DNA of 64,000 nt from the sequence record NC_102531.1; one strand, written 5' to 3'. Source of the stretch: a phage. The notes beneath the pieces were generated by a model, which was not told the DNA's origin, ran no database searches, and worked only from the letters and a program-made list of their open reading frames with translations. A program made the translations under genes and the position numbers. This document shows positions 5,099-59,797 of this stretch, piece after piece. The stretch's first letter is position 1. Each line of letters opens with the position of its first letter.

Positions 5099-5134
5099 TA
5101 CTCCTTTTTGCACTGATTATTTTAACAGGGTTTA

Positions 5135-16828: not shown

Positions 16829-16872
16829 TATGGAATCTCCGATTTTATTTGAACAACATAGAAGGAGACACT

Positions 16873-16901
16873 ATTTTAGCATCCCCTTCTGTAAATTACA
16901 A
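16873..16901 (-). promoter_or_regulatory. Sigma70-like promoter (-35 TTGTAA, 17-nt spacer, -10 TAAAAT)
   Basis: Hexamers and spacing read from the sequence; lies between two minus-strand genes. Confidence 0.35.
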
Positions 16902-26599: not shown

Positions 26600-27899
26600 T
26601 TAAGGCCGGGGTAAGTTTGTAATAACGGAAGCCACCACCACCTTGCCAGTTTACAGACTTGGAAATACCACCTTGATCTTCGCCATCGATCACTTTTTCC
26701 AAGCGCGGAATAATATGGGTATGACAATGATCACCCAGTTCGATCAAGATCCAACGTCTTTTCATTTTGTGAGCTACAGCAGCAGTAGTTCCCGAACCAC
26801 CGAATGAATCCAATACCAAATCGCCTTCTCGCGTACACATTTCGAAAATCCGCTTCAAAAGCGCTTCTGGTTTTTTCCCATTTTTGAAACTAACGCCACC
26901 TTCATTTGCTATTCCATTCCAACTAATATCTGTCCAAACATCAGTTATTAGTTCCGCAGGCTGCATCTCACCGTCAATTTCCAAAAGCCTATTGGAGTAA
27001 AAGACCATTTGCCTACCATTTGCGATATAAAATCCTTCAACATCCTCATTTGGATGTACATAAACCTTATCCTTATCTTTCTTTGACTTCTCGATAGTTT
27101 CTTTTCTCTTTATTTTAGCACCACCACCAATTGCAACAGATTGAAATACACGTTCTGCATTATCAATTGCGAATTGTGCTAATTCATCATCGAATGTGTC
27201 AGGCAGTTTTTTCTTGGCTTCTTTTGCATCTTTATAGCCATTGGCCTTTGCAAACGCATCGGCAATACCGCACCACGTCCAATTTTTATAATGGTCATCC
27301 GGGTTTAATAGGTATTTGTTATATCCTGTATCATACCCTTTAGGTATATAGATTTTGTTAAGCGGTTTCTGGGTGCGATCTTTTGCATATACAAGCAAAA
27401 AGTTTGCTGTGGAGAAAACTGTGGCTCCTGTTGCCTTAAATCCCGAAGGGGAATTTGTGGTCATCGATATGGTAGTTAACTGATTTGCACGACCAAAAAT
27501 CTCGTCCATCAAAACTTTTAAATACGCCATTTCGCAATCATCTAAGTGAACGAATATTACCCCATCATCACTTAGAAGATTACGAATTATTTCTAACCTA
27601 TCCCTCATTAAGCCCAGCCAAATGGAATGCTCAAGGCTATCATCGTAGTGCTCAAAAGCCCTTCCAGTATTGAATGGTGGGTCTATGTAAACACACTTCA
27701 CTTTGCCTGCATACTCTTGCTCTAGCGCCTTCAATGCTAATAAGTTATCTCCAAAAATCAGTTTATTATCAAAAATATCGTTTTCGGTCACTTTCTGGCT
27801 GTGGTAAGACTTGCTAGAATCTTCTAACAAAATGTGCGGCTCTAACTTTTTGCGCTCGTTTTTACCTATCCAGGTTAGTTCTAATTTGGTTTTACTCAT
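26574..27899 (-). CDS. DNA methyltransferase, Mod-like, probably N6-adenine; no partner endonuclease recognised
   Basis: LIFGDNLLALKAL then VYIDPPFNTG (motif IV) and C-terminal SFGGSGTTAAVA (motif I), i.e. beta-class order. Confidence 0.8.
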   Translation of the reverse strand: MSKTKLELTWIGKNERKKLEPHILLEDSSKSYHSQKVTENDIFDNKLIFGDNLLALKALEQEYAGKVKCVYIDPPFNTGRAFEHYDDSLEHSIWLGLMRDRLEIIRNLLSDDGVIFVHLDDCEMAYLKVLMDEIFGRANQLTTISMTTNSPSGFKATGATVFSTANFLLVYAKDRTQKPLNKIYIPKGYDTGYNKYLLNPDDHYKNWTWCGIADAFAKANGYKDAKEAKKKLPDTFDDELAQFAIDNAERVFQSVAIGGGAKIKRKETIEKSKKDKDKVYVHPNEDVEGFYIANGRQMVFYSNRLLEIDGEMQPAELITDVWTDISWNGIANEGGVSFKNGKKPEALLKRIFEMCTREGDLVLDSFGGSGTTAAVAHKMKRRWILIELGDHCHTHIIPRLEKVIDGEDQGGISKSVNWQGGGGFRYYKLTPALIAKDMSDQ

Positions 27900-50325: not shown

Positions 50326-52071
50326 TTAACGTTGTGCAATTACTACGTCTACGATATCACCAACACCACAATACGTTAATTGCAGCAAGGTAACACTGTT
50401 AGCCTTGTTGTTAATAACAGGTGTTGCCGACAGGATAGCATACTTATCGTGCAAAGTCACGTTGTGACCTACAGCATCCTGAATTACATAGATAACCGCA
50501 GTGAATGGATAAGGTTTATCTTCCGCTGATGTCCCAGGCCACTGTCCTATTGTAAAATCCCCTTTCGCGTGAACAACATACATACTGGCCTGCCCGTTAG
50601 GTGTCCATGTCCCACTGGACGCGTCAACCTCCTCTAAATCAAAATCTACCTTTCCTGCGTGGAAAGTAGGGGCAGTAATGGTTTTACCCGCCTCAATTTC
50701 TTGAGAGGTGGTTATCTTGCCACTGGAGTTAATGCCATTACAGACAAAGTTGACATTAGAGAAGTCAGGCAACCACCCAGTCACCGTGCCGGATATTTCA
50801 AGGTTGTGAACAGAGGTGGTGCCAGTCCCTGCTGCGTTTAAACTGACATCTCCATTTACCTGCAAGTTGCGGGTAACGTTGCAGTTTTCAGAGTTTGCAG
50901 TTGTTGCAGTTAAAGTGGTTGTTGTCAGCTCGGTAATTACACCTTTGTTGGCTGTAAGCCCTTCTCCTTCAAAAGTTGCACGCTCATTGACTCTTAAGGT
51001 ATTCAGAGCTATGTTTTGGATAGAGGCCGTACCTCGAATAACTACAGACCCGCCAACCTCCAAATCGCCATTTATCAATGCATCACCAGTGCTTTCAATA
51101 TAGCTAGGGTAGATCATGGTGCCATCGACAGAGTATGTTATCCCTGTAACGGTACCTGTCACCTCAAGGTTCTTAACCCTGGTGGTCCCATCTACCTGCA
51201 ATGTCGGTTCGGTTGCTGCCTTCATGGCATTACCACGAATGTACACGTAGTCAAAAAAGTTATTACCCAGGCCATCAAAATGCACATCGTTATTATTAGC
51301 CACTGGTTTCCCAGAAGTTATAGTGTCAGCTATAACCCTGTGGGTGGACACTTCATGAGGTTGCAGCTCTGTACTTCTCCAGTCTGCATGCTTAGGATCG
51401 CTCCACGCAAAAGTAAGTGTAGAAGTATTTGCCGTGAGGATTAGATTCCTAAAGCGTGCAGTAGAATCTGCCCCATTAACAGGTCCATGTAAGGTAAGGG
51501 TGCCACCAACTATAGTGTTAGCGAGTTCTGTAAGACCTTTTACCACCAAAGACCCTACAGTAACTTTCATCCCCTCCATGGCTTTAAATATGCTATCAAC
51601 ATAGTCAACAACAAACTCTGTGTTTGCTATGGACTCTGACTTATCGTCCATTGGAGGTGTAGGTACTCGTGGGTCACCTTCGAACCTCGGGCTGTTAAGT
51701 TTTGCGTAGTATTTTGCCATTACTGCAGAGTCGGTGTATAATCTCCAGTTTGGAGATTGTGAAGGATCTGCTGGCATTCTAACCGGGTTAGATTTTGATG
51801 CTGCGGGAGCGTACCACCATTGAGGGCCTGTGTCCCCTTTAAACTCATACAGCTGGTTAAAAACTGTTGTGGATGCACCATACGCCCAAGGGATCGGTGG
51901 CGTTTTAAAATAAAGGTTGTCAAGCATGGCTTTTCGTACCGTAGGGATGGTGGTCCCATCCTCTACGACAACTTCATCCACAGCGTTACCGTTGACAACC
52001 AAGTGCAAACGTTCAGAATCAACAATTACTTGATCTACCGCCTGCTCAAAGCTTGTCATGTCTTGCGCCAT
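50326..52071 (-). CDS. Tail fibre or spike protein (581 aa), putative
   Basis: Thr/Gly/Asn-rich repetitive beta-helix-like sequence. Confidence 0.55.
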   Translation of the reverse strand: MAQDMTSFEQAVDQVIVDSERLHLVVNGNAVDEVVVEDGTTIPTVRKAMLDNLYFKTPPIPWAYGASTTVFNQLYEFKGDTGPQWWYAPAASKSNPVRMPADPSQSPNWRLYTDSAVMAKYYAKLNSPRFEGDPRVPTPPMDDKSESIANTEFVVDYVDSIFKAMEGMKVTVGSLVVKGLTELANTIVGGTLTLHGPVNGADSTARFRNLILTANTSTLTFAWSDPKHADWRSTELQPHEVSTHRVIADTITSGKPVANNNDVHFDGLGNNFFDYVYIRGNAMKAATEPTLQVDGTTRVKNLEVTGTVTGITYSVDGTMIYPSYIESTGDALINGDLEVGGSVVIRGTASIQNIALNTLRVNERATFEGEGLTANKGVITELTTTTLTATTANSENCNVTRNLQVNGDVSLNAAGTGTTSVHNLEISGTVTGWLPDFSNVNFVCNGINSSGKITTSQEIEAGKTITAPTFHAGKVDFDLEEVDASSGTWTPNGQASMYVVHAKGDFTIGQWPGTSAEDKPYPFTAVIYVIQDAVGHNVTLHDKYAILSATPVINNKANSVTLLQLTYCGVGDIVDVVIAQR

Positions 52072-52080
52072 GATTTCTCC

Positions 52081-52347
52081 TTAAGCTTTTTGCTCTTCGT
52101 TTTTAACGTGGTCAGGGTGCTGGCAACCCCACCGGAGCGAGATGAATTTGCTAATAAGCTGGGGGCAAGCTACTGAAGGCGCGTATATCCACGCATACCA
52201 TTCAGGAAGCGTATCATTATACCCCATATGAATAAACACCCCAGTCATCACCGCCATGCCTATGTTCGACCATAGCTTAGATTGGGATACTTTCGTAGGG
52301 TCATCAGATGCCGCAACCAGTCCCCATAAAAACTGAGTTAGTTTCAT
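52081..52347 (-). CDS. Small two-TM membrane protein (88 aa), holin-like candidate
   Basis: Two hydrophobic segments plus charged C-terminus KNEEQKA. Confidence 0.35.
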   Translation of the reverse strand: MKLTQFLWGLVAASDDPTKVSQSKLWSNIGMAVMTGVFIHMGYNDTLPEWYAWIYAPSVACPQLISKFISLRWGCQHPDHVKNEEQKA

Positions 52348-52358
52348 TTACCCTCTTT

Positions 52359-53402
52359 TTAAGCATAAGATATAGTGATCCATTGACCATTTACAAGTTT
52401 TTGGATAGCACCTGTCCAGTAATCACCTTGATAAGGGTGTTTATAAGCGTAGTTACCAGAGCACATCACATGTCCAGGGTAGACTCTTGACTCTCTGTAG
52501 GTGGTTTTGAAACGGTTTGCTATCCTTACATCATCAACACCTCTGCTGGGCATAGGGATAGTAAGGTTACCACTACCGTCTGCGCTGTTACCATTTACCC
52601 TACGGACCACGTTTCTTCCACCAACTGTTGCATATTGGCCCCTGACGGTTTCATCGTTACAATCAACTCTTCCACCTATTTGAGCGCTTCCGCAGGATTG
52701 TTGTCCGTTAACAGTGGCTCTTGGTATCGTAACTGCATTGGCATTTGCAGAGGAACTTTTTGCGTCGTTGCATTCAAGATTTCCTTGGATAGCCAGTCTT
52801 GCACGGTTGGCAGTTATAGCATTGAGCTTCATAGCTGAAAACACAGGCTGCCCACCAGAAGGTTGAAATCTCCAACGGAACCCGTCTATTTGGTGAGAAG
52901 GATCATCAAGATCTGTGCCGTCAGCACCACCGATGTTGTCCATAATCCAGAAATCCATCATCGTCTTGTCTGAGGTTATGGTGGTATATATTGCCGCACT
53001 GTCTGTTGACGCAGATGCAAACTCGATTCTTTGGAGACCTAAAGTTTGAGTCTGAATCATTATGTCTCCAGACTTGTCAACATATAGATCGTCCATTTCT
53101 TCAGGTGAATATACATTGAGAACTTGACGTGCAGCAGCTTTGTCTGGAACGTCTGCTAGATTATTAGTGACCCTTAAGAATCTATTATCCCATCCTGGGA
53201 CAACATCTTCTGTTAAATGCTTTAACCACGCAGAAAGCATGTGAAGTTCAAAGTTAACAACTTCACATGCCACTCTTTGTGTCATATCCCAACCTTTCAA
53301 TCTCTCTTCTTTTTTTGGTTGAGACTTATTCAATTCTCCCGTATTTTCAAGCACAACATCCTGATTGGCCCAAATATCAAGAGGGATAACTGGTTTAGTC
53401 AT
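52359..53402 (-). CDS. Tail fibre protein, paralog A (347 aa)
   Basis: Homologous over its length to 54417..55457; shared N-terminus and C-terminus KLVNGQWITISYA. Confidence 0.6.
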   Translation of the reverse strand: MTKPVIPLDIWANQDVVLENTGELNKSQPKKEERLKGWDMTQRVACEVVNFELHMLSAWLKHLTEDVVPGWDNRFLRVTNNLADVPDKAAARQVLNVYSPEEMDDLYVDKSGDIMIQTQTLGLQRIEFASASTDSAAIYTTITSDKTMMDFWIMDNIGGADGTDLDDPSHQIDGFRWRFQPSGGQPVFSAMKLNAITANRARLAIQGNLECNDAKSSSANANAVTIPRATVNGQQSCGSAQIGGRVDCNDETVRGQYATVGGRNVVRRVNGNSADGSGNLTIPMPSRGVDDVRIANRFKTTYRESRVYPGHVMCSGNYAYKHPYQGDYWTGAIQKLVNGQWITISYA

Positions 53403-53491
53403 CGCGTTCTCCTGAGAAAATTCCTTAGGACTATTTTAACACTTTAGAGAACAAAATGCAAGAACGGAGTCCTTTCCGTTCTGACCTTTGT

Positions 53492-53806
53492 TTACCTTTT
53501 ACTATGCTCTACGAGCATGTGCAAAATCTTTTGTACATCAGCTCGGATACCGGAGACATCTGTCCTGACATCCTGCTTAAGGTCGTTAATATCGGCCTCT
53601 AGCTTGCTTAACCGGGTCTCGATAACGGAATCAAGTCTATCTTTTGTAACCATACTGTTTTTCACTAAGATGAGGTCTTTCTCCAGCTCATCTAACCTCT
53701 TGGAAATGCCTTTCCATTTGGTGTGCCACTGGTTGAAAGCCCATACACAGATCGGGACAACGGTACCCATGCAGATACCGTACAATGCCGCCAAATCCAA
53801 CTCCAC
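53492..53806 (-). CDS. TM plus coiled-coil protein (104 aa), i-spanin-like candidate
   Basis: N-terminal hydrophobic helix then heptad-rich charged region. Confidence 0.35.
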   Translation of the reverse strand: MELDLAALYGICMGTVVPICVWAFNQWHTKWKGISKRLDELEKDLILVKNSMVTKDRLDSVIETRLSKLEADINDLKQDVRTDVSGIRADVQKILHMLVEHSKR

Positions 53807-53817
53807 AACACCTCCTC

Positions 53818-54402
53818 TTAGAGGGTAGGTCGCTCCGGGAAGAAAATGTCAGGGGCTTTAGATGTATCTATTTCAAGAAGTTTTACCCTGTACATTTTCA
53901 AATCTCTGATGTTACGTTTCTGGTCATCAGTAAGATCATATTCAAGGTCAATCATGTCTTGATAGGCACCAATTCTAGCAGTAGCCCAAGCAAGTTCTGT
54001 CTCTATGACACCCTCTGCCTGTTGAACAAAGAATTCATTGTCTGTGACAAATTCATCACCAACTAAACGCAAAGCGTCGTGGTGAAGCATAATGTTTTCT
54101 GGTACCTCTTCTTTTTTGGCGATAACCACACGAAGACCTGGAGCAGGCCATAAGGCATCAGGTTCTTCTGTAGATGTCTTAAGAATTCCCTTTTCGTCAA
54201 CAAGTAGGAAGATACAACCCGGATTTTCTTGTCGTAATGTTCGTGACTGCACATACCAATCGCCATCATCATTACGTAAAAAATACCCAGTGTATGCGGT
54301 GTAATCCTCAACCTCTTGAGGGGTCAGCTCTTTGGTTTCCTTGTTGGCGTGGTATTCGCCAGATCCCGGTTGGTAAAGTTTAAACTCTTGAAGTATTTTC
54401 AT
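53818..54402 (-). CDS. Tail fibre assembly chaperone (Tfa family)
   Basis: C-terminal KMYRVKLLEIDTSKAPDIFFPERP matches the Tfa signature as recalled; directly downstream of a fibre gene. Confidence 0.7.
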   Translation of the reverse strand: MKILQEFKLYQPGSGEYHANKETKELTPQEVEDYTAYTGYFLRNDDGDWYVQSRTLRQENPGCIFLLVDEKGILKTSTEEPDALWPAPGLRVVIAKKEEVPENIMLHHDALRLVGDEFVTDNEFFVQQAEGVIETELAWATARIGAYQDMIDLEYDLTDDQKRNIRDLKMYRVKLLEIDTSKAPDIFFPERPTL

Positions 54403-54416
54403 GCTAGTCCCCCGAT

Positions 54417-55457
54417 CTATGCATAATTAACAGTGATCCATTGACCATTTACAAGTTTTTGTAAAGGTCCTGCCCAGTAAGTTGAACCACGCATCTCTTT
54501 TTTGTCACCGAAATGCCAGCCTGTGACAACGTAGCCGTTGCGGATTGGGGATTCAGAAACGCCGTCCACAAGTCTTGCACCGATTCTGATGTCTTGCACA
54601 CCTGTCTGCGGGATGGTGATCGTTACATCACCGTTACCGTTAGCCGTCACTCCGTTCACAGAGCGAACCACATTTCTGTTACCGACAACACAGTGCTGGC
54701 TTCTTACAACCATACTGTCACAACTTGCACCACCATTAACATATACTGACCCAGCCGTCAATTGACTAGCCACATTACAGTTGGTGAATGTTGCTGTATT
54801 GCTGATAGTAAGGTTATTACACCTCATGTTATCGACAACTTCAACATTGCCTACCACTTTCAACAGCGCACGGTTAGCCGTGATCGCGTTAAGGTACATC
54901 AAAGTGAACTCTGGATTAATATCCGGCTGAGTTGGCTGGAATCTCCAACGAAACGCATCTATTGTAGATGTGCCACCATCATCAAACGACCCAATATTAT
55001 CACTTAACCCAAAGTCGAGAGTTGTCTTATCTGGGCCAATAGTTGTCTCTATCCAAGCCTTATCTGTATCGGCAGCTTTAAAGTTGATACGTTGCAAACC
55101 CAATGGGCCTGTCATTGTATCACCTGTAACTTTTACATACCTGGCGTCTGCCTCTTCCTTAGTAATAATCCCAAGGTTTCTACGGGCAACAGGGATGTTC
55201 AAAAGATCACTCAAGTTATTATCACGTACCAGATAACGGCCTTCTTGAGCGGGGATCTGCTCGTCAGCAATGTATTTTGCCCAAGTTCCGAGCATATTGA
55301 AAATATAGTTAAGTTCTTCACATGAGGGCTTTTGACCAAGATCCCAACCTTTTCTCCACAAATCATCAATCGGGCGTAGCCTGTTCTGTCTGTGGGTGTT
55401 AGGCAGAACCTGATCCTCCTCTGCCCAAATCTCTAATGGAAAACTAGGTTTTGACAT
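54417..55457 (-). CDS. Tail fibre protein, paralog B (346 aa)
   Basis: Paralog of 52359..53402 (C-terminus KLVNGQWITVNYA); followed by Tfa. Confidence 0.6.
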   Translation of the reverse strand: MSKPSFPLEIWAEEDQVLPNTHRQNRLRPIDDLWRKGWDLGQKPSCEELNYIFNMLGTWAKYIADEQIPAQEGRYLVRDNNLSDLLNIPVARRNLGIITKEEADARYVKVTGDTMTGPLGLQRINFKAADTDKAWIETTIGPDKTTLDFGLSDNIGSFDDGGTSTIDAFRWRFQPTQPDINPEFTLMYLNAITANRALLKVVGNVEVVDNMRCNNLTISNTATFTNCNVASQLTAGSVYVNGGASCDSMVVRSQHCVVGNRNVVRSVNGVTANGNGDVTITIPQTGVQDIRIGARLVDGVSESPIRNGYVVTGWHFGDKKEMRGSTYWAGPLQKLVNGQWITVNYA

Positions 55458-55469
55458 TTTATCTCCTGA

Positions 55470-57542
55470 TTATGAGAAGTCTGGCGGGACAACATCTTCT
55501 ACATACCCTTTCAGAGCAACCTGCCCCATATGAAGCACGGTAGAATCTCTAGCGGTAACAGTGATGCTGTCAGACATTACTTGCGGGTATGCCCACACAT
55601 ACTGTTTTACCTCAGGATATCTATACTCTATAGTTGCCATGTTTCCGCAAATACATCTCCATAAAAATTCTTGGTAATTCCTAGTTGGGTCGTAACCATA
55701 TACCGGAGCAAGCTCTTTACTAGGAACGAACCCTGCAAGGTATTGTATTTCAGACGGTTGCCAACCTAACTTAACGATAGGTATGTTTACAGACTCTTTT
55801 GCCTTTTCAATACCTCCCTGCATCACCCAATCGTAGCACTCGGTGCAGAAGAAATCAAGAGCACCTGCTTCCTTTTTATATTGGTCAGCAAGGTTCAGCT
55901 TTTGCGTAAGCTCAGTTTCCATAATGGTTGGGAAAAACAACAAAGCTGTCATCTGAGCTGATGCAGCGTGTGCCTTTATTGCCTTTGAAATAGCCGCAAT
56001 ACGAGCGCCAAGCTTACCACGACAAAATGCTACATACTTGTCGTAAACACCGCCAGTTTTAGGATCGTCAATAGTCCCAATATCTAATGCATACTCACCT
56101 GTCTCATCATAAAACGCCTGCTTTGTAGGGTAATCATAAATACAAGGTCTACGAGTATCGGTATTGTACCACCACCACGGTTCACCAACCTGCATAATCA
56201 CTGGCAGGTTGTTTCTCATAGCGGCTGATGCAAAATTCTTAAATACTGCAGTAAGGAAATTCATACCCTCTTCAATGGTTGGAGACAGGAGGTAGCTACA
56301 AGGTGTATACCCTGTTTTAGCGTAGTTATCGTTCCAGTCTCTTTGGGTCCATTCCAACGGGCAGGCATCGCTGAAAAGCTCAAAACTTACAGACTGCATA
56401 ACGTCGAAGTTATGTCGTTTGGCATTGTACATAAAATCATCATGCCATTTATAGGCTGCAGCGTTTAGCGCTCCTGTTCTGTTTATAGACCATTGGGTTC
56501 CTGACCATGTGTAGTCATAATAATGACTCATACCAACATAATGGTTTATGGTTCCGGTATAGCCCAGACGCTTGATATTGTTCAACACCCTTAAAGGAGA
56601 TACGTTCCACATATCGTCATATGCGGTGCAGATCCCAACGTCGTGCTCTCTCACCTGAATATTGTTAAGTTGCATCATTTTCCAGCCTGTGTCTGGCTGA
56701 AGCAGATCTAGGCGCAACTCACACTCTACGTTTTCCGTTCTCGGGTCTGTGCTGTTACTTACCCAGTCTTTAGGCATGAGCGGTATTAAAATCCTTCTCA
56801 CCTGCCGAGGATCAACACCCATCATGTTGTTGTTCTGGTCCATCCCAACGCAGTCCTCAAAATCAATATGAATTTCTGCAACATTCTTATCCTCTGAGAT
56901 GCTGACAGCATATTGAGCTAAAGGAACATAGATGATTGTGCCATCAACAAGGTCTACAGTCATAATCATCTTTTCAGGGGTGGAGAAGTTGCTGGCGTTG
57001 GTTATTGACATTCTGAACCAAAGCTTGGTGTTTCTCATCTCATAATGATCATCAAATCCAATACCGAAATGGTCATACTTGTCAACTGTTTCCCAAATGC
57101 ACCCAGCCATACCCCCATATGTTCTTGACACTAAACGGTTAATACAACAGTTGTTATCTGCAACAATACAGGTACTTTCAGTCTGCTGAGTAGTTGTAAC
57201 CCAATATCTTGGGTGAAACATTCTCTCCTCAACAGTATCCCAAGATATCCTGTCAAGATTCTCATCTGAAACTATTGTACATTTCGCCCTTTGTGTCCCG
57301 ATCATCACCCCTTGGGATTTTGATGAAAACTCCATAAAGAAGCTTCTTGGCAACCTGTTGGGTAATTTGTCAACAATTTCCACCGGGATCTCAATACTGG
57401 TTGCCCCAACTGGGATAGTTACATCGCCCTCAACATGATCATAATCCCTACCCGGAACGGCAGTATCCTGAACTGTGCGGTAATGAAACCGTGCAGCCAT
57501 TGTAGAGTAATCACGGTAAGGTTTAAAAACAGCTGTTGCCAT
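55470..57542 (-). CDS. Tail or baseplate structural protein (690 aa), putative
   Basis: Large ORF in the tail module; no motif recognised. Confidence 0.45.
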   Translation of the reverse strand: MATAVFKPYRDYSTMAARFHYRTVQDTAVPGRDYDHVEGDVTIPVGATSIEIPVEIVDKLPNRLPRSFFMEFSSKSQGVMIGTQRAKCTIVSDENLDRISWDTVEERMFHPRYWVTTTQQTESTCIVADNNCCINRLVSRTYGGMAGCIWETVDKYDHFGIGFDDHYEMRNTKLWFRMSITNASNFSTPEKMIMTVDLVDGTIIYVPLAQYAVSISEDKNVAEIHIDFEDCVGMDQNNNMMGVDPRQVRRILIPLMPKDWVSNSTDPRTENVECELRLDLLQPDTGWKMMQLNNIQVREHDVGICTAYDDMWNVSPLRVLNNIKRLGYTGTINHYVGMSHYYDYTWSGTQWSINRTGALNAAAYKWHDDFMYNAKRHNFDVMQSVSFELFSDACPLEWTQRDWNDNYAKTGYTPCSYLLSPTIEEGMNFLTAVFKNFASAAMRNNLPVIMQVGEPWWWYNTDTRRPCIYDYPTKQAFYDETGEYALDIGTIDDPKTGGVYDKYVAFCRGKLGARIAAISKAIKAHAASAQMTALLFFPTIMETELTQKLNLADQYKKEAGALDFFCTECYDWVMQGGIEKAKESVNIPIVKLGWQPSEIQYLAGFVPSKELAPVYGYDPTRNYQEFLWRCICGNMATIEYRYPEVKQYVWAYPQVMSDSITVTARDSTVLHMGQVALKGYVEDVVPPDFS

Positions 57543-58228
57543 TAACCCTCCTGTCTAGTTGCGTTTACTGTAATACTTTCACAATAAATGGTTGTGGTGT
57601 CCCAATCAGGTCTTACGTCAGGAACATACAGCAAAGTAGCCAGCCCACCAACTCCGAACTGGTTTTCTTCCCATACTGATCCGAAGCCAAGAGCTGTGGA
57701 GTCCCCTTCAAAACCAAAAGCTTGCCCTTGCGATTCTGTAAGGCGCAAATGACAAGGCAATGGCAGCATATCTAAGATCTGATCGATAGACTGCAATATG
57801 TCAAAGCAAGTTTTTCTAATGTTTATGTCAAACCTGAAGTTGTCTCCTTTCCACGTATCGAAATTGTTTCTTCCGAACAATTGTCGCAAGGTGGAGATGA
57901 CATCTTCGCGAGTCCCTCCCCTTGATGCTGCGGCCTGCTGAATAATTAGTGTGGCACGAAAATCAGCATCTGAGAGTCCATTCCTAAGAATACCAAGTTG
58001 ATTACCAACTTCGTCAAGGTATCTTCCGCTGGCATTGTTAAGCAATCTTCCTTCAGCCAAACCTACCAGCATCTTATCAACATCCTCCAACCTTTTAAGG
58101 TACACGGTTAAGAATGTGACTAAATTAACCTTCTCAGCCAGAAAATCTCCAGGCAGGTAGTCAAGACCTCCCTGAACAAAATCTGGCAGAGTGTGGATGT
58201 GGTTAACATCCGACTTAATCTCTGCCAT
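57542..58228 (-). CDS. Tail or baseplate protein (228 aa), putative
   Basis: ORF coupled to its neighbours. Confidence 0.45.
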   Translation of the reverse strand: MAEIKSDVNHIHTLPDFVQGGLDYLPGDFLAEKVNLVTFLTVYLKRLEDVDKMLVGLAEGRLLNNASGRYLDEVGNQLGILRNGLSDADFRATLIIQQAAASRGGTREDVISTLRQLFGRNNFDTWKGDNFRFDINIRKTCFDILQSIDQILDMLPLPCHLRLTESQGQAFGFEGDSTALGFGSVWEENQFGVGGLATLLYVPDVRPDWDTTTIYCESITVNATRQEG

Positions 58229-58239
58229 ATCTCGCCGCC

Positions 58240-59730
58240 TTAAATAGTTTGTTGGAAAGTTATATTACTTTCGTCGAGGTCAAACACCTCGGTCATGTTC
58301 GCAACAATATCGTTTGTAGTGTAAGCTTCATCAGAAGCTCCTACTGGTTTAACTTGAATTACCAGTCTATTAAATCTGCCTATAGACACAGCAGCAGATG
58401 CAGCACCGACCAATTGGATATTGTACAACGTATCTGCAACATCCAGTCCGTTAACAACCTGCAAAAGAGCCTCTACAATGGCATCTTTTTCGGTTGTGGA
58501 AAGCGCAGCACCGGAGTAGGTAATTCTTACATCCAGGCGGTAGGTATTTGCCTTGGAATAATAAATTCTTTCAGTTTGACCGTCAGATGTAGTGACATCG
58601 TAGAAAATATTACCATAAGTCCTGTTCGTACAGGCTATAGTTTGGTAAAGTGCTTGGCAAATGTCCTCCGTTGCACCACCAAACACAACCACTTGGAACT
58701 TGTAAGGAGGTATACCTTTAGCATCAGTTTTATCGGTGTTGTTGGAGAACACTCTCACTTTCTCAACACCTTTTACCTCGCTTACAGCGCTAAGGATTGC
58801 AGGACGGGTAGCCTTCGATGTTAACTGTTTTGTGCTGGAAGCTCTTAAGCGATACTCTGAGTCTTTTTCAACATCCCTTCCCTCATTGAATCTTTCTCGG
58901 TTGGTAAGCTTAATAAATCCACTGGGGGTAGGCGACATTGTTGTCACGGTTTCTGCCTCTCTTGACAGCTCACCAGCCTCGTTAGCGATAACATCTAGGG
59001 TGATAGTTCTTTCCCCTACAATCGGGGATACTCTGAAATCTACCCTACTATTAAGTCCAACTTGATCAAGATTCGAATTGTACCCTATCCACAACGTTCC
59101 TGTCAACATATCGATTTGAATCAAATCGTCGTTCAACAGAGTTGTATTATCGACAATGAATTGCTTAATCTCTCCGTAAAAGCTTGGCAGATCAGAAGAG
59201 TCCAGAGCCTTATCTGTTAAAACCAGACTTTTTGTTTTGATACTTCCATCTGTCTGGTTGGTAATTTGAAAGTTGTATTTCCCAATTCTTAGATCTGGAG
59301 CGTTTATCCTGTGAGCAATAAGATTCCCTGCTACCTGCACGTCGTTGCTAAGAACAAAGTTCCCACTGTCTAATGTGTAAGTTTTGGAATCGTAAATCAT
59401 GTTGTACGGCACAGTTGTGTTGATCGTCAACTGGCAGGTACCTGATGATTTAGAACGGCCTCTTCGGTAAATACCCTGTCTTCCAAGAAGTTCATCTAGG
59501 TAAATACCTTCTGCCCCATACAGCGTCTGCGATGCGTATACAGATGCTGCCATAAGAATAAGTTGATACTCTCGCTCGTTGAAGATAGTGGTCAGCTTAT
59601 CTGCAACGGAGTTACTCTGTACGTTGAAGTTTTCGCCAAAAGCACGGATCAGGCTTTGCTTAGTTTCAACGATTAGGTCATTTAGGGTTGGTATAACGAA
59701 ACCAGCCTCTGTCAATCCATACTTAGCCAC
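58240..59730 (-). CDS. Tail or baseplate protein (496 aa), putative
   Basis: ORF immediately downstream of the J-like gene. Confidence 0.45.
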   Translation of the reverse strand: MAKYGLTEAGFVIPTLNDLIVETKQSLIRAFGENFNVQSNSVADKLTTIFNEREYQLILMAASVYASQTLYGAEGIYLDELLGRQGIYRRGRSKSSGTCQLTINTTVPYNMIYDSKTYTLDSGNFVLSNDVQVAGNLIAHRINAPDLRIGKYNFQITNQTDGSIKTKSLVLTDKALDSSDLPSFYGEIKQFIVDNTTLLNDDLIQIDMLTGTLWIGYNSNLDQVGLNSRVDFRVSPIVGERTITLDVIANEAGELSREAETVTTMSPTPSGFIKLTNRERFNEGRDVEKDSEYRLRASSTKQLTSKATRPAILSAVSEVKGVEKVRVFSNNTDKTDAKGIPPYKFQVVVFGGATEDICQALYQTIACTNRTYGNIFYDVTTSDGQTERIYYSKANTYRLDVRITYSGAALSTTEKDAIVEALLQVVNGLDVADTLYNIQLVGAASAAVSIGRFNRLVIQVKPVGASDEAYTTNDIVANMTEVFDLDESNITFQQTI

Positions 59731-59797
59731 GTCACTCCTCCGGTATGAAAATCTCTACAAGGTATTTTACCAAATTTTGTAACAATAGTCAATCTGA

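Follow-up and report, generated by a model that had tools for sequence, protein, structure and literature searches.

The best described counterpart of the locus analysed here belongs to phage rV5, in which the paralogous proteins gp33 and gp30 displayed 42-43% identity and were accompanied by a single Caudo_TAP chaperone; a late promoter, P030, was recorded as well, and the idea that the pair serves two LPS chemotypes was already printed (Kropinski et al. 2013, PMC3606486). A Mu GpS/GpU-like locus with two paralogous short tail fibres and one chaperone was also described in the BASEL collection (Maffei et al. 2021, PMC8594841, S5D Fig). Fibres of the same type, with homologous joint and tip and with a Tfa gene directly after them, are encoded by phi92 of the Stephanstirmvirinae (gp147/gp148), PVP-SE1 (gp46), 4MG, Mydo and Av-05, all of which have one fibre copy, in contrast to the two described below. 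In phi92, gp147 is 25-28% identical outside the tip, and a lipoprotein gene follows Tfa. This fibre, fibre III, hangs from the wedge protein gp145, and the wedge that carries it is formed by gp145 and gp146, which are homologues of gp35 and gp36 (PMC13450770). In phiTE, residues 3-92 of the short tail fibre gp236 constitute the joint bound to wedge 1 (PMC11972413), and it is this baseplate joint that is modelled in 9CUY. The phiTE fibre shares with the fibres studied here the N-terminal ~100 residues and the terminal motif QK.VNG.W.T, but it is 554 aa long, contains a coiled coil as well as Ig-like domains, is present in single copy and belongs to a flagellotropic phage.

Phage Mu offers a further comparison. 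Inversion of the G segment switches between S/U and S'/U', each tip having its own Tfa, and its GpU-type chaperone and the Tfa of our locus are members of one Pfam family, in which the C-terminal part, responsible for trimerisation, is conserved and the N-terminal part, which binds the fibre, varies. In contrast to Mu, both fibre genes of our locus are complete, co-oriented and constitutively present, and they share one Tfa. An invertible switch of the Mu G or P1 C type was considered and rejected, as the genes are on the same strand, flanking inverted repeats are lacking apart from weak ones of 14-18 nt, and there is no invertase. T4 gp12, a baseplate-mounted fibre that binds the LPS core, is a functional analogue that depends on gp57A and not on a Caudo_TAP Tfa. 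HHpred similarity to T4 gp12 was reported for both rV5 paralogs (Kropinski et al. 2013, PMC3606486); in our three PDB searches (copy A, copy B and a B-only profile) no T4 gp12 chain was returned at E<=1.

Gene content and order of the fibre locus

The window, a stretch of 64,000 nucleotides of phage DNA (NC_102531.1), was assigned by sequence comparison to an rV5-like E. coli phage (Vequintavirus), genomes of this group displaying 98.9% DNA identity to the region 52359-55457. The genes of the locus, all located on the minus strand, correspond to rV5 ORF33, ORF32, ORF31, ORF30 and ORF29, with identical order and spacing and with proteins 98-99% identical, and the sequences of rV5 gp33, gp32 and gp30 differ from those of the window in nothing material. 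We refer to the right-hand fibre (rV5 gp33, 346 aa, 54417-55457, 99% identical to ORF33) as copy A and to the left one (rV5 gp30, 347 aa, 52359-53402, 99% identical to ORF30) as copy B. The locus is the short tail fibre module of an rV5-like Vequintavirus, with the published paralog pair gp33 and gp30 and its one chaperone. The pair with one chaperone that a first-pass annotation of this DNA had pointed out is thus real but already known from the literature, and its description is only partly confirmed, as detailed below. Three observations go beyond the rV5 and BASEL papers: homogenisation of the tips in a sister clade, N-domains specific to each paralog, and the replacement of a gene slot.

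The chaperone gene (rV5 gp32, 194 aa, 53818-54402) lies directly downstream of copy A. Residues 121-192 of its product match PF02413 Caudo_TAP (E 8.4e-12), and the protein belongs to phrog_136, tail fibre assembly protein (E 2e-36); a PDB search with it gave no sequence-level match to Mu Tfa beyond noise. The earlier statement that Tfa adjoins only the right-hand copy is correct. A phmmer search of every ORF in the 64-kb window detected no second Tfa-like one, and each of the nine two-paralog loci examined has exactly one Tfa. Downstream of copy B we found no chaperone gene of its own, the next gene being the one for an 88-aa small hydrophobic protein (rV5 gp29, 52081-52347; phrog_1322, membrane protein).

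The location of this 88-aa ORF after the left copy is as first described. The two transmembrane segments ascribed to its product are not supported, the best 19-residue Kyte-Doolittle window scoring 1.05 and the PVP-SE1 homologue being annotated with one TMD. The protein is 56% identical to PVP-SE1 gp42 and has homologues in single-fibre phages. Between the chaperone and copy B lie a 104-aa ORF (rV5 gp31, 53492-53806) and an 89-bp spacer, neither of which had been mentioned. The 104-aa protein displayed an N-terminal transmembrane helix (Kyte-Doolittle peak 1.9, residues 3-25) followed by a coiled coil; it falls in phrog_5345 (unknown function) and is 32% identical to PVP-SE1 gp44, with homologues encoded after Tfa in PVP-SE1, 4MG, Mydo and Av-05. 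The order in the single-fibre genera is fibre, Tfa, 104-aa gene, a small gene, the ~88-aa gene and the next fibre. In PVP-SE1 the small gene encodes a 4-TM protein, whereas in 4MG, Av-05 and Mydo its product is annotated as a membrane or hypothetical protein, and it is the slot of this gene that copy B occupies. Since one-fibre phages carry this slot between the same 104-aa and 88-aa genes, the contrast between a chaperone after one copy and an 88-aa protein after the other is an accident of synteny. Gene order thus marks the 88-aa gene as one conserved next to the fibre gene that comes after it, neither a B-specific partner nor a substitute chaperone.

Directly 3' of the 104-aa gene is a terminator-like hairpin (53461-53482, minus strand), AGAACGGA-AAGGAC-TCCGTTCT, then TGCATTTTGT, with an RNA fold of -18.5 kcal/mol (z -4.3). 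It is weaker in two other genomes (L013 and L015), so that a terminator function is uncertain and we do not rely on it. Upstream of copy B there is a late-promoter-like motif, TGTTAAAATA (53432-53441, minus strand), which has the same sequence as the putative late promoter P030 of rV5 (Table S4). The motif TGNTAAAATA occurs five times in the window, always on the minus strand, versus 1.06 expected, and TGCTAAAATA is kept upstream of copy B in both L013 and L015. Meanwhile, the operon with copy A and the chaperone is headed by the motif TGGTAAAATA (59763-59772, minus strand; rV5 P036), which is followed by the baseplate wedge genes corresponding to rV5 gp35 and gp36 (57542-59730, minus strand; 228 aa and 496 aa; phrog_4056 baseplate protein and phrog_6 baseplate wedge subunit).

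Likeness and divergence of the two fibre copies

A search for protein homologues returned eight clusters, and copy A belongs to phrog_4465, tail fibre. PDB searches matched its N-terminal residues 1-108 to the phiTE short tail fibre (9CUY chain c, E 1.6e-19) and its residues 286-343 to residues 440-501 of the Mu tail fibre protein S (5YVQ_A, E 1.8e-6). The N-terminus of copy B also matches the phiTE fibre (E 2e-8 with the single sequence, 2.4e-14 with a B-only profile); its tip gave no match to Mu GpS 5YVQ in PDB searches with either of these queries. An AlphaFold2 monomer model of copy B, built from a 9-sequence alignment, was unusable (mean pLDDT 31.5, pTM 0.18), and trimeric interdigitated fibres of this kind call for multimer rather than monomer prediction.

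The two proteins are collinear homologues (BLASTP, 43% identity, E 8e-95) without large indels, which bears out the earlier claim of homology along their length. The distribution of this likeness differs from the one first described, namely shared termini around a divergent centre. Identity is 41% over residues 1-66, 35% over 67-112, 59% over 113-200, 37% over 201-285, 30% over 286-326 and 75% over 327-346, so that the central block 113-200 is the best conserved long block and the sub-terminal tip (286-326) the most divergent part. Of the shared termini, the C-terminal one stands, as the last ~20 residues are near-identical, the 346-aa and 347-aa ORFs ending in KLVNGQWITVNYA and KLVNGQWITISYA; the N-terminus, at 38-41%, falls below the centre, and within it residues 19-35 read PNTHRQNRLRPIDDLWR in A and ENTGELNKSQPKKEERL in B. 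The terminal motif QK.VNG.W.T is also present in the fibres of PVP-SE1, phi92, 4MG, Mydo and phiTE, and is therefore a hallmark of the family, not special to this pair.

At the nucleotide level, the 3'-end boxes of B (52351-52422) and A (54409-54480) are direct repeats of each other over 72 nt (81% identity) and share an exact core of 30 nt, CAAAAACTTGTAAATGGTCAATGGATCACT. Within the last 25 codons, 12 of the 14 identical residues use the same codon, compared to a background of 37% for the whole gene and 28% outside two outlier windows. Residues 31-60 also displayed an excess (the same codon at 7 of 8 identical residues), which we treat as possibly due to chance since these residues are interspersed with different ones.

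Comparison with single-copy orthologues separated the two copies. The N-domain of A is 54-57% identical to those of Av-05, PVP-SE1, Mydo and 4MG, and that of B 43-51%; for the tip, the values are 57% and 42-43% (Av-05 and PVP-SE1). The tip motif of A, GVSES..GxVxTGWxFGxKKExRG, is common to all single-copy orthologues and was lost in B (~286-326); the two tips align without large gaps (44-45% identity). In a relative-rate test against Av-05, 70 lineage-specific changes were assigned to B and 36 to A (p 0.001). These comparisons identify A as the orthologue-like copy and B as the derived, faster evolving one, with a diverged N-terminal adaptor and tip. The sister status of A and B was unsupported in an NJ tree (bootstrap 28-38%).

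Both copies are under strong purifying selection, with dN/dS of 0.025 for A and 0.057 for B (pS about 0.19), next to 0.036 for Tfa. Copy B is intact in >110 genomes. Its intactness, the selection acting on it and its own late-promoter motif mark copy B as a gene that, by these signatures, is functional.

Sister-clade tips and the retention of two copies

A sister clade of five genomes (L015 and L020-L023) provided insights into the reasons for keeping both genes. Its Tfa is 44-46% identical to that of the window. Both of its paralogs carry the same tip (84-89% identical in amino acids, 74-84% in nucleotides), one that differs from the tips of the window, and the fraction of same codons in these tips is 0.48-0.70 versus the background of 0.28. 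The codons shared by A and B at the 3' end in the window (12 of 14, with the 30-nt exact match) form a signature of the same kind. Meanwhile, the N-domains of A and B are 37-41% identical to each other in every genome, and across genomes those of A orthologues are 75-88% alike and those of B orthologues 62-79%. Since the sister clade has the same tip on both genes and keeps both, differing tips are not the general reason for having two copies. The tips track the single chaperone, and the stable difference between A and B lies in the end that attaches to the baseplate.

Based on these findings, the explanation that we favour, with about even confidence, is that a Mu GpS-type fibre underwent a lineage-specific duplication, with one Tfa folding both products, the copies sitting at different docking positions and the tip of B conferring a second specificity. 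The N-terminal ~100 residues of copy A would form the joint by which the fibre inserts into the baseplate wedge, and its C-terminal tip a Mu-S-like glycan-binding head, with trimerisation nucleated by the Tfa encoded directly downstream. Copy B would be an old duplicate that came to occupy a variable slot, flanked by genes for two small membrane proteins, under a late promoter of its own, and both copies would be incorporated into the virion. The divergence of the B tip in the rV5 clade would be an additional step, probably towards recognition of a second LPS core or glycan. The co-evolution of both tips with Tfa, together with the presence of exactly one Tfa at all nine two-paralog loci, leads us to infer that the single chaperone folds both fibres. 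Likewise, because each copy keeps its own conserved N-terminal adaptor, the copies are presumably not interchangeable, which suggests that there are probably two docking positions or partners on the baseplate or fibre network. The wedge proteins gp35 and gp36 are, by analogy with phi92, the probable docking partners; one attachment site per wedge is known in phiTE and phi92, so a second docking site is hypothetical.

Published virion data touch on this point. Cryo-EM of the Vequintavirus phages Bas49 and Bas54 showed a Mu-like short tail fibre density, one among three fibres, in maps (EMD-51868 and EMD-51869) whose resolution of 7-9.5 A leaves the paralogs indistinguishable (PMC12143355). In the main text on rV5, 'total phage proteomics' includes gp30, gp32 and gp33; the accompanying mass spectrometry table (Table S5) covers 19 proteins, and none of the three is found in three of the four parts of that table (PMC3606486). 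The protein in the remaining part, part 2, is probably gp64. The O177 paper labelled 'proteomics' reports in silico work only.

A related possibility, which we hold only tentatively, is that the copies are retained because their N-terminal adaptors set them at two non-interchangeable positions on the baseplate or fibre network, rather than mainly for binding different receptors; that repeated gene conversion homogenises the tips and so keeps both compatible with the one Tfa; and that the distinct B tip of the rV5 clade is a secondary, clade-specific specialisation. Regarding receptors, neither paralog showed allelic variation in the BASEL study, and the LPS-core requirement was one and the same, Glc I (PMC8594841), so that two specificities are not called for by these data. 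The proposal of dual or alternative receptor specificity made in the first-pass annotation is partly supported: the loss of the tip motif in B, its dN/dS of 0.057 and its own promoter speak for it, while the same tips of the sister clade speak against it. Two receptor specificities from a duplicated fibre, the hypothesis printed by Kropinski et al. (2013), are plausible for the window phage on the strength of its divergent tips.

In its pure form, dual specificity would make A and B equivalent fibres that occupy the same site, giving mixed virions with tips that differ in the LPS core chemotype they bind. The 30% identity of the window-clade tips over residues 286-326 and the phiTE-type N-terminal joint of both copies are compatible with it, as is the plating of rV5-like phages on K-12, R1 and R3 core types (PMC7229145). 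Nevertheless, N-domains that are 37-41% identical and paralog-specific in both clades are unexpected for competitors for one site, both genes persist in the sister clade with the same tips, and data from LL12 and BASEL converge on one shared core sugar, Glc I. We consider this explanation unlikely.

It is more doubtful still that copy B is not a receptor-binding fibre of the virion at all, with A alone functional and B being a duplicate with a redundant or regulatory role, a helper in assembly or a fibre restricted to particular hosts or conditions. Such a role would agree with the single short tail fibre density seen by cryo-EM, with the lack of an adjacent chaperone and of the conserved tip motif in B, and with the absence of gp30 from three of the four parts of Table S5, where gp33 is likewise absent. 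It is at odds with the purifying selection on B (dN/dS 0.057 at pS about 0.19), its conservation across two deep clades, the late-promoter motif that precedes it and its full-length collinearity with A, attachment joint included.

That B is folded by another helper (the 88-aa, the 104-aa or a host chaperone) or folds unaided is very improbable. A gene, a hairpin and a promoter do lie between B and Tfa, and the sub-terminal tip of B is unlike that of A. However, the tips of both paralogs change with Tfa in the sister clade, and the 88-aa and 104-aa ORFs were rejected as alternative chaperones, being membrane-type proteins without Tfa similarity whose genes stand in the same order in single-fibre phages. 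Remotest of all are A/B heterotrimers. Such mixed trimers would be initiated by the single Tfa and the C-terminal nucleation strand common to both copies, with shafts kept in register by near-equal lengths. The lengths (346/347 aa, and 346/354-355 aa in the sister clade, without large indels), the identity of the C-terminal strands down to their codons, the identical sister-clade tips and the one chaperone would suit them, but to our knowledge heterotrimeric Mu-S-type fibres have no precedent, shafts of 46-50% and N-domains of 37-41% identity would make the joint asymmetric at a docking site with threefold symmetry, A and B have separate promoters, and every observation is explained by homotrimers.

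Relevance for rV5-like phages

As the pair and its single chaperone had already been published, the value of this analysis lies in its refinements. Phages of the rV5 type are common, have a broad host range on E. coli and are used in biocontrol and in phage-therapy cocktails, and their short fibres are thought to serve the last, irreversible step of adsorption. Knowledge of the mounting, position and ligand of each paralog would help to predict and engineer their host range. The locus also offers a compact natural example in which one Tfa apparently serves two fibres, which bears on the joint swapping of tips and chaperones in engineered phages.

Composition of the fibre module

Along its whole length, the region at 52000-55500 shared 98.9% identity with phages of Escherichia from the genus Vequintavirus in our search of the phage collection, with matches to bov10K2, rV5_ev147, slur16, LL12, FFH2 and the BASEL phages RudolfGeigy and JeffSchatz. 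In total, 113 phage records span at least 80% of this region. About 16-21 records titled "Campylobacter phage", with C. jejuni as host (e.g. A142, A141, C15), are 98.5% identical to the E. coli Vequintavirus region, and their host labels look doubtful. All genes in the fibre part of the window lie on the minus strand and were named by comparison with the rV5 record DQ832317. From right to left, they encode fibre copy A (54417-55457, 346 aa, rV5 ORF33), the chaperone Tfa (53818-54402, 194 aa, ORF32), a 104-aa protein (53492-53806, ORF31), fibre copy B (52359-53402, 347 aa, ORF30), an 88-aa protein (52081-52347, ORF29), and the 581-aa product of the next fibre gene (50326-52071, ORF28). Relatives of this last protein, gp28, carry the N and C domains of Phage_phiTE_241 in precomputed Pfam assignments (PF26208/PF26209; L013 7330-9075), and a Pfam scan of the window gp28 itself gave no match at E<=0.01. 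In gp34 (55470-57542, 690 aa), a Calx-beta domain is joined by the N-terminal and TIM-barrel domains of the N4 gp65-like "non-contractile tail sheath protein" (E 4e-80). This is the protein that the BASEL paper and a 2026 receptor-prediction preprint treat as the NGR/ECA-type glycan-binding fibre. In the window and in Av-05, its gene separates the wedge genes from copy A, and it is missing from that site in PVP-SE1, 4MG and Mydo.

The first-pass annotation had assigned an assembly chaperone to the right-hand copy only, and this was borne out. The 194-aa protein matches Caudo_TAP (PF02413, E 8.4e-12) and phrog_136, and when every ORF in the 64-kb window was scanned with phmmer, neither a second Tfa nor a third fibre of the A/B type was detected. 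In Tfa proteins, the N-terminal domain that binds the fibre is variable and the C-terminal trimerisation domain is conserved (PMC9608196), a layout that fits the restriction of the Pfam match to residues 121-192.

Position and transcription of copy B

The single-fibre genera Seunavirus (PVP-SE1, 4MG), Mydovirus (Mydo) and Avunavirus (Av-05) share the order wedge genes, (gp34 homologue in Av-05), fibre, Tfa, 104-aa membrane protein, small gene, ~88-aa membrane protein, and gp28-like fibre. The small gene is gp43 in PVP-SE1 (L002 5997-6470), encoding a 157-aa membrane protein with four TM segments; 4MG and Av-05 have a putative membrane protein of the same size, and Mydo a 133-aa hypothetical protein (L006, L007, L008). 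The flanking genes are homologous, as the 104-aa protein of the window resembles PVP-SE1 gp44 (32% identity) and the 88-aa protein resembles gp42 (56%), indicating that B sits in the slot of the small gene. By this comparison, B is an insertion and the small ORFs are bystanders, the 88-aa gene being expected with or without B. The slot is a variable, moron-like site within the fibre operon.

The 88-aa protein had been described as having two TM segments, which is unsupported given its weak hydrophobicity (best 19-residue Kyte-Doolittle window 1.05) and the single TMD annotated in its PVP-SE1 homologue. The 88-aa (phrog_1322) and 104-aa (TM helix plus coiled coil, phrog_5345) membrane-type proteins are conserved in the fibre module across Vequintavirinae (homologues at L002 5686-6755 and L005 1070-1336), and the 88-aa type is also present in phi92 (gp144), immediately ahead of the wedge genes. 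In ECP26 (L009 4445-4728), the 88-aa gene is unannotated and the start of the next gene downstream is shifted forward by one base relative to the other genomes, which suggests an indel or frameshift.

The sole sizeable spacer of the module is the 89 bp between the 104-aa gene and B (53403-53491, minus strand). It contains a strong hairpin followed by a T-tract (53461-53482, minus; -18.5 kcal/mol, z -4.3) and the late-promoter-like motif TGTTAAAATA (53432-53441, minus), identical to P030, which Table S4 of the rV5 paper lists as a putative late promoter with exactly the sequence upstream of copy B (PMC3606486). The distant relatives L013 and L015 retain the motif and the TTGCATTTT tract, and the hairpin is weak in both. 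The window contains five copies of the pattern TGNTAAAATA against 1.06 expected, always on the coding strand. The copy ahead of B matches rV5 P030, and the one ahead of the 496-aa wedge gene, at 59763-59772 (minus), matches P036, which places A and the chaperone in the wedge operon and B at the start of the late transcription unit that follows. Further minus-strand copies are found at 5118-5127, 16872-16881 and 27111-27120.

Divergence of the two fibres and their tips

Copies A and B are collinear homologues, as first annotated, with a similarity far beyond chance (BLASTP 43% identity, 59% positives, E 8e-95). Their description as sharing termini around a divergent centre did not hold, since identity is comparatively low at the N-terminus (41% at residues 1-66, 35% at 67-112) and the long block with the highest identity lies in the centre (59% at 113-200), followed by 37% at 201-285 and 30% at 286-326. 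The claim of near-identical C-termini applies to the last ~20 residues only (75% at 327-346). The terminal motif (L/I)QK.(V/I)NG.W.T is a family hallmark, common to the single-copy fibres of PVP-SE1, phi92, 4MG and Mydo and to the phiTE short tail fibre.

Copy A is closer than B to the full-length single-copy orthologues among the matches listed (e.g. 45% vs 36% for PVP-SE1; 46% vs 38% for Mydo). It retains the orthologue consensus at residues 1-66 (65% to PVP-SE1, B 44%) as well as in the tip (56-59%, B 38-40%), while B retains it better at residues 67-112 (59% vs 43%). With Av-05 as outgroup, 70 changes were specific to B and 36 to A (p 0.001); a tree of the fibres did not resolve the branching order. 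Among seven Vequintavirus genomes, dN/dS was 0.025 for A, 0.036 for Tfa, 0.024 for gp31 and 0.057 for B, the 0.48 of gp29 being inflated by the ECP26 anomaly, and pS was about 0.18-0.19 for both fibre genes and 0.10-0.13 for Tfa and gp31. Judged by these rates, A and B are clearly both constrained genes, the B protein being about twice as variable.

Nine loci, including distant relatives from a large protein collection and IMG/VR, fell into two clades, all nine with one Tfa and the same gene order. Relative to the window, identities in the rV5 clade (window, L013, L018, L019) were 87-99% for A, 78-96% for B and 78-99% for Tfa, and in the sister clade (L015, L020-L023) 72-74%, 45-49% and 44-46%, respectively. 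Over the last 61 residues, A and B are 44-48% identical in the rV5 clade and 84-89% (74-84% at the nucleotide level) in the sister clade, where the two genes share the codon at 48-70% of identical tip residues (background 28%). Outside the tip, divergence between A and B is equal in the sister clade and the window. The last 25 codons of the window copies display the same signature, with 12/14 same codons and a 30-nt exact match. By contrast, the N-terminal domains (1-112) of A and B are 37-41% identical in every genome and those of orthologues are more alike (A 75-88%, B 62-79%). From these comparisons, the duplication is older than the split of the two clades. The tips of both copies vary in step with the single chaperone, for which gene conversion and dependence of both fibres on that chaperone are the best explanation. 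It is the attachment end and shaft, rather than the tip, that have stayed different throughout.

Docking, receptor specificity and the published record

Both copies match the short tail fibre of phiTE over their N-terminal ~100 residues (9CUY chain c; E-values A 1.6e-19, B 2e-8, B-type-only profile 2.4e-14). In the phiTE structure, this fibre is bound to wedge protein 1 through a globular joint made up of residues 3-92 (PMC11972413), and its phi92 homologue, fibre III (gp147), is suspended from wedge protein gp145 (PMC13450770). For A, the tip (286-343) aligned to residues 440-501 of Mu tail fibre protein S (5YVQ, E 1.8e-6); B had no direct match to this protein in PDB searches with a single sequence or B-type profile. 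In low-resolution cryo-EM of two Vequintavirus phages, one density was attributed to a short tail fibre, and its C-terminus was Mu-like (PMC12143355).

The fibre pair is already described by Kropinski et al. (PMC3606486) and Maffei et al. (PMC8594841), the latter noting two paralogs without considerable allelic variation between genomes, and the BASEL GenBank records label both genes "short tail fiber protein". According to the rV5 main text, "total phage proteomics" detected gp30, gp32 and gp33 (PMC3606486). The mass spectrometry table of that study (Table S5, Additional file 5) holds 19 proteins: 61, 60, 53, 52, 133, 79, 152, 82, 34, 237, 41, 62, 235, 106, 37, 1, 27, 228 and, judging from the main-text coverage figure, 64. 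As gp30, gp32 and gp33 are not in parts 1, 3 and 4 of its four parts, virion incorporation of the paralogs and chaperone is not documented there; to the extent of those parts, the published evidence leaves incorporation unsettled, which weakens the two-fibre model. LL12 and BASEL genetics point to a single LPS-core requirement, heptose-linked glucose, by which a second specificity is neither needed nor excluded.

Most likely, A and B would each form short trimeric fibres, with one Tfa assembling both from the C-terminal end. A would dock on the wedge, as phi92 gp147 does, while B has a conserved adaptor of its own and probably docks at another place or on another partner. In the rV5 clade, the diverged tip of B may have added a second glycan specificity. 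We infer the presence of both fibres in the virion, the two docking sites, the sharing of the chaperone and what each fibre binds.

The initial observation is thus real, with some inaccuracies. Its dual-receptor interpretation is a published hypothesis which the comparative data support only partly, and the locus holds no new kind of system. What is modestly new is that the two tips evolve in concert with one chaperone, set against adaptors that are specific to each paralog.
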